DNA of 64,000 nt, from the NCBI GenBank assembly GCA_963809715.1, contig CAWEKO010000002.1:189665-253664 (forward strand), written 5' to 3'. Both the position numbers and the translations under genes were made by a program. Positions 8,807 to 15,221 of this stretch are shown piece after piece. The notes beneath the pieces were generated by a model. It did no database searches and was not told the DNA's origin. It worked only from the letters and a program-made list of their open reading frames with translations. Position 1 is the first letter of the stretch. Each line of letters starts with the position of its first letter. The stretch is from an uncultured Acidimicrobiaceae bacterium. GTDB lineage: Bacteria; Actinomycetota; Acidimicrobiia; Acidimicrobiales; RAAP-2.

Positions 8807-9892
8807 TCATCCCGTCACCTCGAGATTGGGCCCCACCAAGTCCGCGGCCCCGTGAAACGGGTGGGACGAGTGCCGTTGGGCCGCCTCGGTGATTGCCTGT
8901 TGATAGGCCGCGACGTACTGGTCGACCATTCGCTCGCTGCTGAATCGCCGAACCGCGAGCGTGCGAACTGCGGCTCGGTCAAAGCGGCTGATGGTCTTGA
9001 CCGCCTCGGCCGCCGAGGCAACGTCGGCAACGAGAGTGCCCGTGGTTCCCTCGATGATGAGTTCCCGCATCGATCCGCGATCGAAGGCAATCACCGGGGT
9101 TCCACAGGCCATCGCTTCGACGACCGAGAGACCGAACGGCTCGTCGAAGTTCACGAGGTGGAGAAGGGCTTGTGCCCCGCCGAGGAACGTTGAGCGATCC
9201 TCTGCACGAACGGAACCGACGAATTGCACGCGATCCCCGTCAAGAAGTGGCGCGACCTCTTTTTCGAAATACTTCTCGTCCTGAACGATTCCGGCTATCC
9301 GAAGTGGGACATCCGCCCTCCTTGCGGCTTCGATTGCGGCAACGACTCCCTTGTCCGGGTGAATCCGTCCGAAGAAGGCCACATACGAGCCCGGCGCCGA
9401 GTGGAAACGAAATGCTCGGGTGTCGATCCCGTGGTGGATCGTGCTCACATAGTCGAGGTCAGGATGCCTGTCAGCATCGCTGATGGCGACGTAGGAGGTT
9501 AAGGAGTTGTACTTGACGTACACCGGAACGATGTCGGGTGACGAGAATCCGTGGATCGTGGTGATCACAGGGGTCGCGATCAACCCGGAGTAGGTGAGCG
9601 GCAGAAAATCGAAGCTGTTGTGGATCACGTCGAACTCAGACGCCCGCTCGAAAACTTCGGAAATGTGCAGGCACTCGGCGACTTTGGGGTCGACGCTCGG
9701 GTCCTCGGACCAGCCTCGGCCAACCACGCTGCGTAAACGGGCCGAGGTTACGGAGTCACCGGTGGCGAAAAGCGTCACATCGTGGCCCCGGGCTACCAGC
9801 CCTTCGGTCAAGAGCGAGGCGAAAAGCTCCCATGGCCCGTAGTGGAGCGGAGGCACACGCCAGGAGATGGGTGCGAGCACCGCAATGCGCAC
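8807..9892 (-). CDS. glycosyltransferase family 4
   Basis: RIAVLAPISWRVPP...GHDVTLFATGDS N-terminal Rossmann half; FDEPFGLSVVEAMACGTPVIA (E-x7-E region). GTG 9892 preferred over the 443-aa ORF start, whose extra N-terminus is a low-complexity Arg/Glu tail. Confidence 0.82.
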   Translation of the reverse strand: MRIAVLAPISWRVPPLHYGPWELFASLLTEGLVARGHDVTLFATGDSVTSARLRSVVGRGWSEDPSVDPKVAECLHISEVFERASEFDVIHNSFDFLPLTYSGLIATPVITTIHGFSSPDIVPVYVKYNSLTSYVAISDADRHPDLDYVSTIHHGIDTRAFRFHSAPGSYVAFFGRIHPDKGVVAAIEAARRADVPLRIAGIVQDEKYFEKEVAPLLDGDRVQFVGSVRAEDRSTFLGGAQALLHLVNFDEPFGLSVVEAMACGTPVIAFDRGSMRELIIEGTTGTLVADVASAAEAVKTISRFDRAAVRTLAVRRFSSERMVDQYVAAYQQAITEAAQRHSSHPFHGAADLVGPNLEVTG

Positions 9893-10061
9893 GACGCTCT
9901 CAACGCCCCAGTCCCGAGCGGTCAGCCTTCTTGTCTCGTTCTTCTCTCTTCTCCTTCTTTGCCCCTCGCTTCTCCTTGAGGGACCTTCCGGGTTTCTTTC
10001 CCGATGGCTTCTGCGGGGATCTGTCGGGCATCGTGTTCTCCAATCGTGTGTGGTCGCAAGG

Positions 10062-11552
10062 TCAGTCGGAATTCTCCCGCAAGGCGGCCAACAGCTTGAC
10101 CAGAGGCACGCTGGCCACTCCGATTGCGGAGTCGCCAATTCCGTAGGGGAGGATCAGCGTGTCCGCATGGATGAGAGCGCCGCAGGAGTAGAGGACATTG
10201 GGCACGTACCCGTTCTGCTCATCACGGGTCGGGCTGAGGAGTGGCTCGCGGAGCCGACCGATCACCCGAGTAGGATCTTCGAGGTCGAGCAGTATGGCCC
10301 CGATCTTGTAGGTCCGCATCGGACCAACGCCGTGAGTGAGGACCAGCCATCCGACCTCAGTTTCGATTGGCGATCCACAGTTGCCGAGCTGAACGACCTC
10401 CCAGGAATGCAGGGGTGTCTGGCACGCCAAGCCCCGTTCCCAGAGATGTGGGTTGCTTGAGTAGGTGATGGTGTTTGATTCCCGATCAGATCGAGACAAC
10501 GCCGCGAACCGCCCTCTGACTCGACGAGGGAAGAGTGCCAGACCCTTGTTGGCCGCCGCCGCGCCGGCCATCGGCCTGGAGGTGAAGTGCACGAAATCCT
10601 TTGTTTCGAGAAGTTGTTGGCCGATGTCCGTGCCGTTGAAAGCCGTGTAGGAGGCGTAATAGGTCACACTGCAATCCTCGTCGCAGAATCGCACGAAGCG
10701 GGCGTCCTCCACGCCCTTGACTTCGGCGCTCATGGCCGGCAGGAGTACCCGTTCACTCAGTGGCGTATCGGACTCGAAGGTAACGCCGTAGCTCCGTTCG
10801 GCGATTCTCCGGATCTGGCCGATCGTTCTCCGAGCCTGCTTCCGGGTGGCCACGTGTTTCTCGAGCCGGTTCAGCTGCACCTCCAACCCGGCGAGGGTGA
10901 ACTGTGGCCCGAGGCGACCGAGCACGTAGTCGACGTCATCCACGCTCGCCCGGAGTCGACGCAGCTCCGCTTTGAATGCTTCGGCCTCGAGGGTCGCCTC
11001 CTCTCGCTGTCCCGTAATGGCAAAGGTCGGCGGTGCGTCAAATTCGACGTCGGCTGACGAGGCCACAATTCCAGTCCGAAAGCCAATCGAAGAGGTGTGG
11101 CCCTCACCGACTGCACGGACACTCATCACGAAGCGGACGTCGCCGGCTTTGACCCCGGCCTGGTCGGGATGAATGACCATGCTCGGATTGCACAGAGCAG
11201 CACCCTCAATGGCGTACTCACTCGTAAAGGTGGCGCCGAGGAGGAGACGGCGGGTCGGAGACAGCTGGCGTTCCGGATTGAGACGATCCGAGAGCTCGTC
11301 GGCGTGCTGAAGGAACGTGTTGGTCAATCCATGATGTCGAGTGCTGAAGCGATCCAAAAGATCATCGAGAGCAACTTGGACTTCTTGGTCCGACAACTCC
11401 AGCACGCGTTGTAAGACGGGATTCGATCGGGATTCCTGCTGATCGAATCCCTCGTGACCTGGGACGAAAAGACGGGTGACCACACGCGACGCATCGGCCG
11501 AAATGCGGATGGGATGGCGACGAAGGAGTGTCGACTCACGGAGGAGGGTCAT
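10062..11552 (-). CDS. glycoside hydrolase family 130-like protein (glycoside phosphorylase/glycosidase fold) with about 250-aa N-terminal extension
   Basis: C-terminal half has GVEDARFVRF, NKGLALFPRRVRGRF, VPNVLYSCGAL and LPYGIGDSAIGVA, which match the GH130 beta-propeller pattern. No signal peptide. Confidence 0.78.
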   Translation of the reverse strand: MTLLRESTLLRRHPIRISADASRVVTRLFVPGHEGFDQQESRSNPVLQRVLELSDQEVQVALDDLLDRFSTRHHGLTNTFLQHADELSDRLNPERQLSPTRRLLLGATFTSEYAIEGAALCNPSMVIHPDQAGVKAGDVRFVMSVRAVGEGHTSSIGFRTGIVASSADVEFDAPPTFAITGQREEATLEAEAFKAELRRLRASVDDVDYVLGRLGPQFTLAGLEVQLNRLEKHVATRKQARRTIGQIRRIAERSYGVTFESDTPLSERVLLPAMSAEVKGVEDARFVRFCDEDCSVTYYASYTAFNGTDIGQQLLETKDFVHFTSRPMAGAAAANKGLALFPRRVRGRFAALSRSDRESNTITYSSNPHLWERGLACQTPLHSWEVVQLGNCGSPIETEVGWLVLTHGVGPMRTYKIGAILLDLEDPTRVIGRLREPLLSPTRDEQNGYVPNVLYSCGALIHADTLILPYGIGDSAIGVASVPLVKLLAALRENSD

Positions 11553-12574
11553 TGGAGGACGCCGCTAAGACGCCGGGCGTGCTGCATGGTCGAGAGGAAA
11601 GCGAGCGTCGACTCGGTTCCCTGGTTGAGATTGGCGCCTGATCTCTGCAGGCCGTCAAAGCCTCCACCGGTCTCTGGGTCCCACATGACGACTTCGCCGT
11701 CATTGTCACCGAGGAACCAATTCGTCGCAGACGTGATGCCGTCGGCCCACAGAGGGTTGCCGTCAATGTCGAGGGCGCGGGCACACGCATCGGCCAGCGC
11801 CGCGATCTCGATCGGTTGCTGGTCGAATCCCGGGGCTCGGTCCTCGGGAGCCGCTCCCCCCACGGGAGTGACGGAGAGATGCCCATGTTGGGTCTCATGA
11901 CTAAGCAGCCACTCCAAGAGATCCAACCCGCGCTGCACGAGTGCGGGACGATCGAGAGCCGATCCGGCCGCAATCACCGCTTCGGGGAGAGTGGCGTTCG
12001 CGTAGGTGAGGCGCGGTTCGGGCCAGGGCCACCCCGCGTGAGTGTTGGGCCTGGCCATTGCGTCAGCGGCGTCCGACAAGAGGCTGCGGGCAGACACATG
12101 GTCGGGGTCAACCTTGAGGAGCTCGGCGGCGCCGAGCGTGGCAAAAGCGATGGACCTGGGCCAGCGTGAGCGCTGGCGCATCGCTCGTTCGATCGCCCGC
12201 AGTGCCAAGCCACGTATCTGGTGATCGTCGCTGCGGGATGCTGCCGTGCCCAACCCCCAGATGGCCCTTCCCCAGCAATCGTCGAGTGTTGGGACGTCCT
12301 CCCACACGCCACTCCGGTTCATCCGGTTTCGGCATCGGCCAACCGAATCCAGCGCACTGTGAACGAACCTCACACTCAGCGCGGCAAGGTGATTGGCCTC
12401 GGGATTGCCCTGTTCACGAGACGCCACCACGAGCACACGCGCCATGTCGTCGCTGCAGTAGCCGTGTTCGGGCCTGGGCGCGCTGAAGAGTGCGTGTTCG
12501 AAGACGCCGTGCTCATCGGCCATGGACACGAGGTGTCCGAAATTCGACCCGGAACCCTCCAGGGGCGAGTTCAC
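11549..12574 (-). CDS. conserved hypothetical protein, glycan-operon member
   Basis: Coding-like frame. GTG 12574 overlaps the upstream stop (GTGA), and its own stop overlaps the downstream ATG (ATGA 11549-11552). No family recognised. Confidence 0.6.
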   Translation of the reverse strand: MNSPLEGSGSNFGHLVSMADEHGVFEHALFSAPRPEHGYCSDDMARVLVVASREQGNPEANHLAALSVRFVHSALDSVGRCRNRMNRSGVWEDVPTLDDCWGRAIWGLGTAASRSDDHQIRGLALRAIERAMRQRSRWPRSIAFATLGAAELLKVDPDHVSARSLLSDAADAMARPNTHAGWPWPEPRLTYANATLPEAVIAAGSALDRPALVQRGLDLLEWLLSHETQHGHLSVTPVGGAAPEDRAPGFDQQPIEIAALADACARALDIDGNPLWADGITSATNWFLGDNDGEVVMWDPETGGGFDGLQRSGANLNQGTESTLAFLSTMQHARRLSGVLQ

Positions 12575-13737
12575 ACGAGTGACAATCGATCCGAAAGGAG
12601 GTGATCGGCCAAGCGGACGTACTGGCCCGCCACCACCGACCATCCGAGGCTCGGAGCCAAACGGGCTGCCTCTGCTGCCATGCTGGCCGCCAGATCGGGG
12701 GTCGTGAGGATGCTTCGCAGAGCTCGGGCCATCGCATCGGGGTCATCGTGGTCGACGACGATCCCGGCGCCACTCGAGAGAAACTCGACGGCGTGAGGAA
12801 ATGCGGTCGCCACCACGGGCCGTCCGGCCGCGACGGCGTCGACGAGGACACCGGACGTCACCTGGTCCTTGGAGTCATAGGGAAGGGCGACGACGGTACT
12901 CTTTTGAATCAAAGCAGTAAGAGCTTCCACATCGCGATACGTCGCGTCAAAAACGACGGACGAAGAGAGCCCGTAGCGCTCCGCTTGCTCCATGCGTTCC
13001 CGACGGTACGACTCCCCGTGCGCGGCGAGGACCTTGGGGTGCGTCTGGCCGGCTACGAGATAGCGTGGTTGGGTCGGGAGATCGTGCAGCGTGTGCATAG
13101 CGTCAATGACGCGCTCGATCCCTTTTCCCGGCCCGATCAGACCCCACGTCAATATCACAGGTCGGGCTGCCGGATCGGGTACCACCGGGGCCCGGGGAAG
13201 TGCGGCCCCGTGCGCGACGGTGGCTACCTTGGAGGGGTCGACATCGAAGCCTTCGCGCAACCGAGTGTGGGCCGCGGCGGTCATGACCACGACCTGGTCA
13301 GCCAGAGCCACCACTTCGTTGAGCACAGACCGCTGGTGCGGAGTCGGGTCGGCCAGGATTGTGTGGGCGATGACAATGGACGGAACGCGCAGACCGGCCA
13401 GGATCTCGAGGAGCTCGTCTCCGTCGACTCCTCCGTAGAGGCCGTACTCGTGTTGGATCAGGGCAACGTCGTGTTGGTTCAACGCCTCCGAGCTCGCCAG
13501 CACAGAACTGCGTGATCCGTTGTTCAAGTGGCCGACGACGGGATGGCGTTGCGACTTCTGTGTTCCGTCGTCGAGGACTTGCACCACACCGATCTCGCTG
13601 TCGTGCTTCGACAAGCCGGACGCCAGTGCGGCGCTAAACGTGGCGAGGCCACACGGCGTTGGAGGATAGGAGCTGAGGATCCCGAAAGAGCGAGCGCGAC
13701 GCTCAGGGCGTTCGATGGGCAAAGTCGTGACGCGCAC
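12571..13737 (-). CDS. glycosyltransferase family 4
   Basis: FGILSSYPPTPCGLATFS N-terminus typical of a GT4 subgroup; C-terminal VATAFPHAVEFLSSGAGIVV E-x7-E region. GAGGAG RBS before GTG 13737. Confidence 0.85.
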   Translation of the reverse strand: MRVTTLPIERPERRARSFGILSSYPPTPCGLATFSAALASGLSKHDSEIGVVQVLDDGTQKSQRHPVVGHLNNGSRSSVLASSEALNQHDVALIQHEYGLYGGVDGDELLEILAGLRVPSIVIAHTILADPTPHQRSVLNEVVALADQVVVMTAAAHTRLREGFDVDPSKVATVAHGAALPRAPVVPDPAARPVILTWGLIGPGKGIERVIDAMHTLHDLPTQPRYLVAGQTHPKVLAAHGESYRRERMEQAERYGLSSSVVFDATYRDVEALTALIQKSTVVALPYDSKDQVTSGVLVDAVAAGRPVVATAFPHAVEFLSSGAGIVVDHDDPDAMARALRSILTTPDLAASMAAEAARLAPSLGWSVVAGQYVRLADHLLSDRLSLV

Positions 13738-14501
13738 GGAAGCTCCTCAGAGAGGCTCGGTCGAGGCGTCGAACCTGTTCGAGGCGACGTCGGCCGATCG
13801 GCCGTCCTGCCCAAGCAAAGCGACTCTCCCAAGGGATGAGGACCCCATCATACCGCGGGACTTGATCAACGGTTCCACCAGAGCGTCCCGCAATACTGTC
13901 GCCGCGCCAACAGATCATCGCTTCTGTGACTGCGAGCCATACGGTGAATCAGAGAGCCCTTCCACCGACTGCGCGGGTTGACGACTCGTGTGACGTCGAA
14001 GACAGACCCGCTGCGTCGCTGCTCCAATTGCGAGTGGCCTTCAAGAGTGCGCGTTGCGTCGCTGCAGGTGTCACCGAGTTCGGTCACGACGTCGCTCGCG
14101 ACAGATACTCGAGGCGCGTGACCCGCCAGGGGACCTCCGAAGGTGCTACGGTCTAGGCAGTTCAACTCGAACGAACGCGCCCCTGCTCGACGGGGGAGGA
14201 TTGGGGGGTTCCGTGGAACCCCGGCTTGCAAGTGCGGACGGTGTTCCGCAGGAAGCAGACACCCGCCGAAGCGCCAGATCCGTCGGATCGACAGGTGCCG
14301 GCACCGGAGCGAACTTCCAACCCTGACCGGATCCTCGAGCGATCACTCGCTCGGGAACGCTGCGACACGACCCTTCGGAGCGATCGAGTCACAGCCACCA
14401 CGTTGCATTGCGCGCCATCCCGAGGCGATCGAGAGTGCACAGACGTCACCCACTATCGAGTGCGCACACCTACGTTGCTCAACACGAACTGAGGAGAACA
14501 C

Positions 14502-15221
14502 ATGGAAACGCCAAAGCCCAACATCGTCCTTGTCCACGGAGCATGGGCCGATGGATCGTGTTGGAGTGCGGTCATCGAGGGACTCCAGGCCAAAGGCTAT
14601 AACGTCACTGCGCCGCAGTTTCCGGAGAGCTCGTTGGCCGATGACGTGGCCCGGCTCCGCCAGGTGCTCAATCGCCAGGGCGGTCCGACTGTCGTTGTGG
14701 GCCACTCCTACGGTGGGCAGATCATGACCTCGCTCAGCACTGACGCACCCAATGTCGTGGGACTGGTGTACATCGCAGCCTTCGGCCTCGACGAGGGTGA
14801 GACGATCGGGGGACTCCTGGCGGAAGGGCCTCCGACCCCCGCCCTGGCCCATCTCGACATTGACGAACAGGGCTTCGCCTGGTTGCCCGAGAACGACTAC
14901 GTGGAGTACTTCGCCGCAGATGTCGCTCCGGCCAAGGCGAAGGTCATGTTCGCCGTCCAACAGGCCTTGTCGGCGTCGACGCTCGGAGACGTCATGGGTG
15001 TCCCGGCCTGGAAGTCGCTGCCGTCGTGGTACATGGTCGCAGTCAACGATCAGGCCATCCCGCCCGAGGCGGAGCGGCTTTTCGCCAAGCGGATGGGGGC
15101 GACGACCGTCGAAGTCCCGAGCAGTCACGTGGCGATGGTCTCGCACCCAGAAGACGTGATCTGGCTGACCGAGACGGCCGTCGAGGCCTGTGCCGCCAGC
15201 GCAGGGCTGGCCAAGGTCTAG
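14502..15221 (+). CDS. alpha/beta hydrolase (esterase-like)
   Basis: NIVLVHGAWADGSCW and nucleophile elbow GHSYGG. GAGGAG RBS. Confidence 0.85.
   Translation: METPKPNIVLVHGAWADGSCWSAVIEGLQAKGYNVTAPQFPESSLADDVARLRQVLNRQGGPTVVVGHSYGGQIMTSLSTDAPNVVGLVYIAAFGLDEGETIGGLLAEGPPTPALAHLDIDEQGFAWLPENDYVEYFAADVAPAKAKVMFAVQQALSASTLGDVMGVPAWKSLPSWYMVAVNDQAIPPEAERLFAKRMGATTVEVPSSHVAMVSHPEDVIWLTETAVEACAASAGLAKV

Follow-up and report, generated by a model that had tools for sequence, protein, structure and literature searches.

What does an operon of two GT4 glycosyltransferases, a GH130-like enzyme, and a protein of no obvious family make in an actinobacterium? The question arose from an earlier note on a 64,000-nt stretch of DNA (hereafter, the window) from an uncultured Acidimicrobiaceae bacterium (contig CAWEKO010000002.1 of GCA_963809715.1), which proposed a cytosolic oligosaccharide built by the GT4 enzymes and recycled by a GH130 phosphorylase. 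We followed up this proposal computationally. The reading that we favor, at about an even chance, is that the locus encodes a self-contained module, working in the cytoplasm, for the synthesis and turnover of a small, soluble oligosaccharide or glycoside. Its control would be post-transcriptional, through a structured leader RNA, and probably stress-related. The product would most likely act as a stress protectant or a carbon reserve. The features, given in window coordinates and in the direction of transcription, are as follows.

13847-13852, minus strand: TATGAT, a putative -10-like promoter box directly upstream of the conserved leader
13738-13846, minus strand: leader RNA, a conserved structured 5′ leader with hairpin P0, a long irregular stem (P1a/P1/P2/P2b/P3), and the Shine–Dalgarno sequence GAGGAG
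12571-13737, minus strand: GT4a, a GT4-type glycosyltransferase (GT-B) of 388 aa that opens the operon; GTG start, preceded at 5 nt by GAGGAG
11549-12574, minus strand: UNK, a 341-aa (alpha/alpha)6-barrel protein; GTG start overlapping the GT4a stop (GTGA)
10062-11552, minus strand: GH130L, a 496-aa long-form GH130 enzyme similar to beta-mannoside phosphorylases; ATG start overlapping the UNK stop (ATGA)
9896-10061, minus strand: purine- and A-rich spacer of 166 nt between GH130L and GT4b, with no match to the leader model
8807-9895, minus strand: GT4b, a 362-aa glycosyltransferase of the TeGSS family; GTG start at 9895 or 9892

The four open reading frames were confirmed on the minus strand between 8807 and 13737. 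Direct reading of the sequence recovered the two 4-nt overlaps, with GTGA at 12571-12574 and with ATGA at 11549-11552. The coupling of the operon held for GT4a, UNK, and GH130L, which overlap, and not for GT4b, which is uncoupled and lies approximately 166 nt beyond the GH130L stop. In line with the earlier note, which saw no signal peptides, none of the four proteins contained a hydrophobic segment of the signal-peptide or membrane-span type. No transporter, flippase, or polymerase was co-conserved with the module in the window flanks and related loci. The module thus appears cytoplasmic and self-contained.

The co-conservation of the genes, which had been named as a point to be checked, was strong. 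The order GT4a-UNK-GH130L (hereafter, the triad) was kept in approximately 75 of 80 loci from named genomes, and GT4a was syntenic in 72. The same gene order across approximately 75 of 80 independent loci is far beyond chance. Carriers of the triad included Acidimicrobiaceae and other Acidimicrobiia, many Mycobacterium and Mycolicibacterium, Cellulomonas alba, C. persica, and Lentzea, and synteny persisted down to 43–50% identity; in Actinocrinis (L094), the GH130L gene alone was recovered, near a contig end. No further gene was universally linked to the triad in the 80 loci. The distribution of GH130L was patchy (17 of 41 related genomes and 12 of 24 within the genus), and close orthologues of GT4b (at least 59% identity) were found in exactly these 17 of the 41 genomes, unlinked cases included. 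GT4b adjoined the triad in 20 of the 80 loci, with a position relative to the triad that varied, and in one genome it stood divergently beside GT4a-UNK while GH130L was 1 Mb away. Proteins in which GT4 and UNK are fused exist in some lineages (among representatives at 50% identity). The four genes are considered to belong together because of the synteny of the triad, the GT4-UNK fusions, and the identical profiles of GT4b and GH130L (17/17 in 41 genomes). In a set of 5.8 billion proteins clustered at 90% identity, GH130L and UNK each accounted for over 7,800 clusters (GH130L more than 7,900). These clusters were named only "predicted GH43/DUF377" or "hypothetical", and we came across no function published for either protein. 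Mycobacterial loci of the module adjoined genes for hibernation-factor-like, DUF5994, and GAF-ANTAR proteins. The methylmannose-polysaccharide cluster of fast-growing mycobacteria was tried as an identity of the module and rejected, as no methyltransferases were present.

The GH130 assignment of GH130L proved real with the hidden Markov model PF04041 (98.3 bits against a cut-off of 26), which matched residues 265–492 over profile positions 83–319 only, and the motifs reported earlier (GVEDARF, NKGLALFPRR, PNVLYSCG, and YGIGDSAIGVA) were present. The nearest NCBIfam models were those of beta-1,2-mannobiose phosphorylase, under cut-off, and residues 1–251 and 95–190 had no Pfam match at E ≤ 10. 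The AlphaFold model, built from 30 homologues (pLDDT 89), was matched by Foldseek to the five-bladed propellers 9GPH and 9FJ8 (TMt 0.76–0.77 over nearly the whole target). In this model, the N-terminal extension of approximately 250 aa described in the earlier note is not one extra domain, as it contains the first propeller blade: a hairpin and four helices (1–108) are followed by blade 1 (110–171) and by a four-helix insert (190–251) between blades 1 and 2. More than 99% of GH130 members have a single-module architecture of approximately 300–390 aa (PMC7660257), and GH130L departs from this rule with its 496 aa, N-terminal add-on (1–108), and helical insert (190–251).

The nearest solved relatives of GH130L were the beta-1,2-mannoside phosphorylases Teth514_1788/1789 (E value of 2e-32 by sequence; TMt 0.76 by fold). 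In GH130, a phosphorylase is told from a hydrolase by a proton-donor Asp, a phosphate-binding Arg/His, and the lack of a signal peptide, and a Glu before the catalytic Asp indicates a beta-1,2 or beta-1,3 linkage while the Lys of the NK motif indicates beta-1,2 (Li et al., PMC7660257). Residues E282-D283, K336, R354, H407, and D474 were invariant in GH130L alignments of 7 and 30 sequences, and D283, R354, and H407 aligned with the corresponding residues of Teth514_1788 and Uhgb_MS. The check between phosphorylase and hydrolase configurations thus came out on the phosphorylase side: with the donor Asp (D283) and the invariant R354/H407, GH130L is predicted to be of the phosphorylase type and not the hydrolase type. 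The Glu/Lys pair for the beta-1,2 linkage was also present (invariant E282 and K336). The equivalent of the blade-1 Arg (R59 in UhgbMP and R47 in Uhgb_MS) could not be mapped in GH130L.

The characterized enzymes closest to GH130L, Teth514_1788/1789 (GH130_6; PDB 9FJ8, 9GPH, and 7FIP) and Uhgb_MS (9ERG), share with it the cytoplasmic five-bladed propeller, the ED donor motif, the Lys (K336), the Arg/His (R354/H407), Asn360, and the C-terminal Asp. GH130L differs from Teth514_1788/1789 in being approximately 190 residues longer, with the N-terminal hairpin and helical bundle and the helical insert, and in being accompanied by GT4 and barrel genes without an ATP-binding cassette (ABC) importer. 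The view that a pairing of GH130 with GT4 enzymes and an unknown partner is not a textbook system held in that no publication on this module was found in the literature on GH130, including its GT4, mycobacterial, and actinobacterial contexts. The pairing of GH130 with GT4 has a precedent, as a GT4 gene accompanies the GH130 pair in the beta-1,2-mannoside cluster of Thermoanaerobacter (PMC4264767). The branch to which GH130L belongs includes weak GDP-mannose transferases, and its nearest solved relatives are dual phosphorylase/transferases making beta-1,2-mannosides (PMC12814180); therefore, GH130L is possibly a synthase rather than a recycler. A likeness of concept exists with the mannogen cycle of Leishmania, in which propeller enzymes of the GH130 fold (GT108 MTP, dual glycosyltransferase-phosphorylases) build and degrade a cytoplasmic beta-1,2-mannoside reserve (PMC8950772), and Foldseek with the GH130L model found MTP2 and MTP4 at E values of approximately 1e-6. 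In contrast to MTP, GH130L is GH130 by sequence and not GT108, and Leishmania has no counterpart of the partner GT4 enzymes or of the barrel protein. In two genomes of Acidimicrobiales, the leader and GT4a are immediately preceded by a second, short GH130-like gene, which is approximately 30% identical to GH130L (L058:3865-4542 and L067:3801-4511).

UNK had been described as belonging to no recognizable family. This was borne out by sequence, as no Pfam or NCBIfam match was retrieved even at E ≤ 10, and not by fold: its AlphaFold (AF2) model was a confident (alpha/alpha)6 barrel (pLDDT 92). The fold search called for in the earlier note ranked YPO2471 of Yersinia pestis (PDB 7TEM) first (Foldseek, TMq 0.78), followed by the cellobiose 2-epimerases 3WKF and 9L8I (TMq 0.71, probability 1.0) and then by YihS, AGE, and mannose isomerase. 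A profile search of PDB sequences also gave YPO2471 as the sole match (E value of 2.3e-15), and the two proteins have the motifs DDxAR, W..RxxW, FDGL, and NxNxGAEST in common. YPO2471, the only solved sequence homologue of UNK and its best fold match, is annotated as exported and is approximately 85 residues longer; the depositors' name, "putative exported protein", gives no function and thus no functional information for UNK. Cellobiose 2-epimerase is a known partner of GH130 in mannan catabolism. In Bacteroides fragilis, Ruminococcus albus, and Rhodothermus marinus, it is paired with a GH130 mannosylglucose phosphorylase. These pairs resemble our locus in that the gene for an (alpha/alpha)6 barrel with an AGE-class fold adjoins that for a GH130 phosphorylase. 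Compared to those pairs, UNK is approximately 60 residues shorter than the epimerases, lacks the Pfam signature of AGE/CE, and has a glycosyltransferase as its coupled or fused partner; moreover, the linkage predicted for GH130L is beta-1,2 and not beta-1,4. Four apparent fusions of UNK to a C-terminal domain of 370 aa (P0269, P0327, P0328, and P0337 of the public protein set; 680–765 aa) were rejected as probable gene-calling artefacts, as their tails, judged by composition, look like antisense read-through of GC-rich DNA.

The assignment of both glycosyltransferases to GT4 was upheld by matches to the Pfam models Glycos_transf_1 and Glyco_transf_4. For GT4a, the former matched at 2.6e-16, and the latter, at 9.5e-05, scored below its cut-off (22.9 vs. 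28.5). The nearest solved relatives of GT4a were weak (Tll1590 sucrose-phosphate synthase (SPS), PimA, and MshA-like enzymes, at approximately 1e-7).

GT4b matched TeGSS (7FG9) with an E value of 3.5e-79 over residues 2–344, with approximately half of the aligned residues identical. TeGSS is a UDP-glucose:sucrose alpha-1,2-glucosyltransferase producing glucosylsucrose, a soluble glucoside that stress induces in cyanobacteria, and its Tyr18 and Arg179 have been mutated (PMC9909042). The equivalents of both residues are kept in GT4b (the Tyr of PPLHYGPWE and the Arg of FFGRIHPDKG), and GT4b is predicted to be a UDP-glucose-dependent alpha-1,2-glucosyltransferase. The likeness to TeGSS (tll1591) and to Nostoc alr1000 is a full-length homology with catalytic-site residues kept; the settings differ, as TeGSS adjoins sucrose-phosphate synthase and uses sucrose, whereas GT4b travels with the triad. 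A search for sucrose genes in this genome, which is 92% complete, found no SPS over cut-off (best score of 58.9 vs. 576 bits) and no S6PP (SPP) domain. Sucrose was therefore rejected as an unlikely acceptor of GT4b, and the acceptor would be another compound, plausibly the product of the triad. In Mycolicibacterium tusciae (L105:6676-9389), the GT4b orthologue, which is unlinked, shares a 10-nt overlap with a gene for a 572-aa protein of the GH13 alpha-amylase family with DUF3459; this pair is possibly a synthase and a hydrolase of an alpha-glucoside.

The operon is preceded by a conserved RNA. In an alignment of upstream regions from Acidimicrobiia, approximately 110 nt before GT4a were conserved far better than the DNA further upstream, even between loci whose proteins are only approximately 50% identical, and the covariance model R1 matched the window at 13730-13849 with an E value of 1.9e-30. 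The proposed structure consists of the 5′ hairpin P0, the helices P1 (GAG.CG / CG.CUC), P2 (GCUUG / CAGGY), and P2b (GGC / GCC), an AG bulge, and the helix P3 (GAC / GUC). P3 carries a distal hairpin that is variable in length and sequence; the unpaired stretches are highly conserved, and the internal loops and bulges very strongly so (UUGGGCAGGACGG and GCCCCGUGCAGG). In 42 sequences, 93.7% of the cells paired, compared to 34–48% in slid controls. Changes on both sides were found for 12 of the 22 pairs, which none of 500 shuffles reached. As the model guided this alignment, the counts are biased in favor of the structure. An alternative helix, P1a (CUUGG / CCGAG), uses the G residues of P0 and so excludes it, and double changes were seen in P1a as well, here without any fitting of the alignment to this helix. 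The presence of two mutually exclusive helices beside the Shine–Dalgarno sequence suggests that the alternation of P0 and P1a is a translational switch. With a covarying structure in the 5′ untranslated region beside a ribosome-binding site, the leader has the marks of a cis-regulatory RNA; no match to it was found in Rfam (Rfam 15) on its strand at E ≤ 10 between window positions 13650 and 14550.

The promoter of the operon may be represented by TATGAT, which we infer to be a -10-like box. Equivalent boxes (TAGACT, TAGGCT, TAAACT, TAGTCT, and TAGGAT) were located at the same distance in related loci, and conservation was absent beyond them. A sigma-70 consensus scan retrieved no site, and terminator-like sites occurred at chance level. 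A SigF/SigB-type promoter (GTTT-N-GGGTA) upstream of GT4a was rejected, as it was found in none of 75 upstream regions while 1.6 were expected by shuffling.

When the order was searched with a covariance model, 25 of its 151 genomes (24 genera) proved to carry the leader, and three families belonging to other orders of the class had it as well. Approximately 30 instances precede the GT4a-UNK-GH130L operon, and elsewhere the leader precedes an alpha/beta-hydrolase confirmed by Pfam. Other genes behind the leader were named from sequence by eye, and we take them to encode small CGRC...CPPC zinc-ribbon proteins, a GAF-ANTAR regulator, a GGDEF protein, and a hemolysin-III protein. Three copies (L126, L128, and L132) precede secreted, cell-anchored proteins (GLGTAGSFAVLAGSGITNTG...), which we presume, also by eye, to be DUF3494 ice-binding-like. 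The DUF3494-like genes hint at a link of the leader to cold or freezing.

Several further copies and a counterpart were observed. A second, shorter leader core occurs in the same genome outside the window (L109:1501-1561; G000:C7:215263-215323, minus strand), approximately 25 nt upstream of an S33-type alpha/beta-hydrolase gene, and there the ribosome-binding site AAGGGAG can pair with CUCUUUGG, which overlaps the 3′ strand of P1. The complete genome G115 holds four copies (L116, L149, L150, and L136), two of which are divergent, approximately 140 nt apart, before hemolysin-III and zinc-ribbon peptidase-like genes. The mycobacterial operon loci do not have this leader. They have a different conserved stretch of approximately 150 nt after a GGTGTAGCGT box (L056:4665-4831, L043:4655-4816, and 15 other loci), with hairpins showing some compensatory changes (GUUGGG..CCCAGC vs. 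GCUGGU..ACCAGC, and UCAGC..GCUGA vs. UCGAC..GUCGA). Seven loci from mycobacteria, Cellulomonas, and Lentzea were compared with Rfam, and no family attained its gathering score.

The analysis established which genes the locus contains, the folds and catalytic signatures of their products, their co-conservation, and, for the leader, its covariation and gene set; the substrates, the order of steps, the product, and the leader signal are inferred. GT4a, together with UNK (to which it is fused in some lineages), would draw on a nucleotide sugar to form an alpha-linked hexoside. UNK would isomerize or epimerize a sugar, like the proteins of the closest folds, or trim the product. GH130L would add or remove beta-1,2-linked mannose, either reversibly through mannose-1-phosphate and phosphate or weakly from GDP-mannose, and this would tie the pool to the phosphate and energy state of the cell. 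GT4b would extend the product by alpha-1,2-glucose from UDP-glucose, as TeGSS does on sucrose. The structured 5′ leader would set expression after the start of transcription, with P0 versus P1a probably exposing or hiding the ribosome-binding site.

Several observations weigh against this cycle of synthesis and turnover. Outside the order, GT4b was found in three of the five triad carriers checked and was missing in two; therefore, GT4b is accessory. GT4a was under every NCBIfam cut-off. UNK is without the sequence signature of AGE and cellobiose 2-epimerases (no Pfam match at E ≤ 10 and YPO2471 as the only PDB profile match), and its conserved acidic motifs could equally be compatible with a hydrolase. 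In GH130L, Gln388 occupies the place of an Arg of the relatives (Arg242 in Uhgb_MS), a helper in nucleotide-diphosphate binding that favors the use of GDP-mannose (PMC12814180), and this argues against a strong GDP-mannose transferase activity. The minimum free energy of the single leader sequence was no better than that of shuffles (z = +0.79), a measure that is uninformative at this GC content. Finally, the label "stress" rests on names and annotations of neighboring genes and on the gene set of the leader.

For the control element, the alternative to a riboswitch is a leader of another kind: it would be bound by a protein or small RNA, serve as an RNA thermometer, or simply form a stabilizing 5′ structure. 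We put the chance of this alternative at slightly below even. The genes behind the leader are a mixed set (the sugar operon and hydrolase, ice-binding-like, GGDEF, and GAF-ANTAR genes), and a global signal, for instance temperature, would suit them no less than a metabolite. The very strongly conserved loops and bulges and the two mutually exclusive covarying helices speak on the other side, as both are typical of ligand-sensing RNAs, although they are not proof. The boldest combination of our results appears to us possible and on the unlikely side: the leader would be a new riboswitch class of Acidimicrobiia that senses a stress-related metabolite or second messenger by switching between P0 and P1a, and it would stand over a module making a novel mixed beta-mannosyl/alpha-glucosyl compatible solute or reserve oligosaccharide, in which GH130 is biosynthetic like GT108 of Leishmania.

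For the module itself, three other explanations were weighed against the soluble oligosaccharide or glycoside. The first, a pathway for a cell-envelope glycoconjugate, is improbable in our view. The GT4 enzymes would act peripherally, like PimA, on a lipid or protein acceptor, and GH130L would add or edit a beta-mannose cap. GT4 enzymes frequently use membrane acceptors even though they contain no membrane segments of their own, and the weak best matches of GT4a include PimA and MshA-type enzymes. However, the module was not co-conserved with any flippase, polyprenyl-phosphate enzyme, membrane protein, or secreted partner, the envelopes of the carriers (mycolata, Acidimicrobiia, and Cellulomonas) are very different, and the close homologue of GT4b acts on a soluble sugar (PMC9909042).

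The second, in which the GT4 enzymes and GH130L decorate in turn a small molecule other than a sugar (such as a thiol, polyol, glycerate, or secondary metabolite), we rate as more improbable still. Relatives of the GT4 enzymes do include MshA, BshA, and the tetrahydrobiopterin glucosyltransferase, and compatible solutes of the glycoside kind, such as glucosylglycerate and mannosylglucosylglycerate, would be products of this type. Against it, no aglycone-making gene (such as one for a phosphoglycerate-type synthase or a phosphatase) was co-conserved, and if the aglycone were a common metabolite, this explanation would overlap with the soluble glycoside that we favor.

The third and least probable, catabolic salvage of imported beta-mannosides (for example fungal or plant, beta-1,2- or beta-1,4-linked) by the epimerase-like barrel and a GH130 phosphorylase, along the lines of the cellobiose 2-epimerase/mannosylglucose phosphorylase route, with GT4 enzymes that re-use the mannose, agrees with the fold of UNK, which is closest to cellobiose 2-epimerases, and with the Thermoanaerobacter GH130 pair in a salvage cluster with a GT4 gene (PMC4264767), but, unlike that cluster, the 80 loci have no ABC transporter, binding protein, or secreted glycosidase by the triad, the tightest link is that of GT4 and UNK, whose fusion in some lineages points to synthesis, and UNK has no epimerase sequence signature.

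The surroundings of the operon in the window were unrelated to sugars, with flanking genes for alpha/beta-hydrolases, CHAD-CYTH, SnoaL, and a flavoprotein reductase. A divergent alpha/beta-hydrolase gene (14502-15221) lies upstream of the operon and is conserved adjoining it in two members of the genus (L014 and L023; 86–89% identity). The GC content was 61–65% in window positions 1-36000, which include the operon, with a third-position GC near 0.7, and 68–72% in positions 36001-64000, with a third-position GC of 0.8–0.95; this shift could reflect a large acquired region or a mis-joined contig of the metagenome-assembled genome.

The locus thus presents known kinds of enzyme in an uncharacterized pathway: GH130L with an odd architecture, GT4b outside the context of sucrose, and UNK with an AGE fold minus the sequence signature. 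If the favored cycle is true, GH130L would perhaps be the first bacterial GH130 whose cycle serves biosynthesis or storage and not catabolism. Through the link to TeGSS, alpha-1,2-glucosyltransferases acquire a context beyond the cyanobacteria. In a bacterial class with few known riboswitches, the leader is a tangible candidate for a regulatory RNA, and a ligand of the leader, should there be one, would lead straight to what the operon does in the cell. With the product defined, very many genes now named "hypothetical" or "GH43/DUF377" in soil and freshwater Actinobacteria, environmental mycobacteria included, could be annotated.

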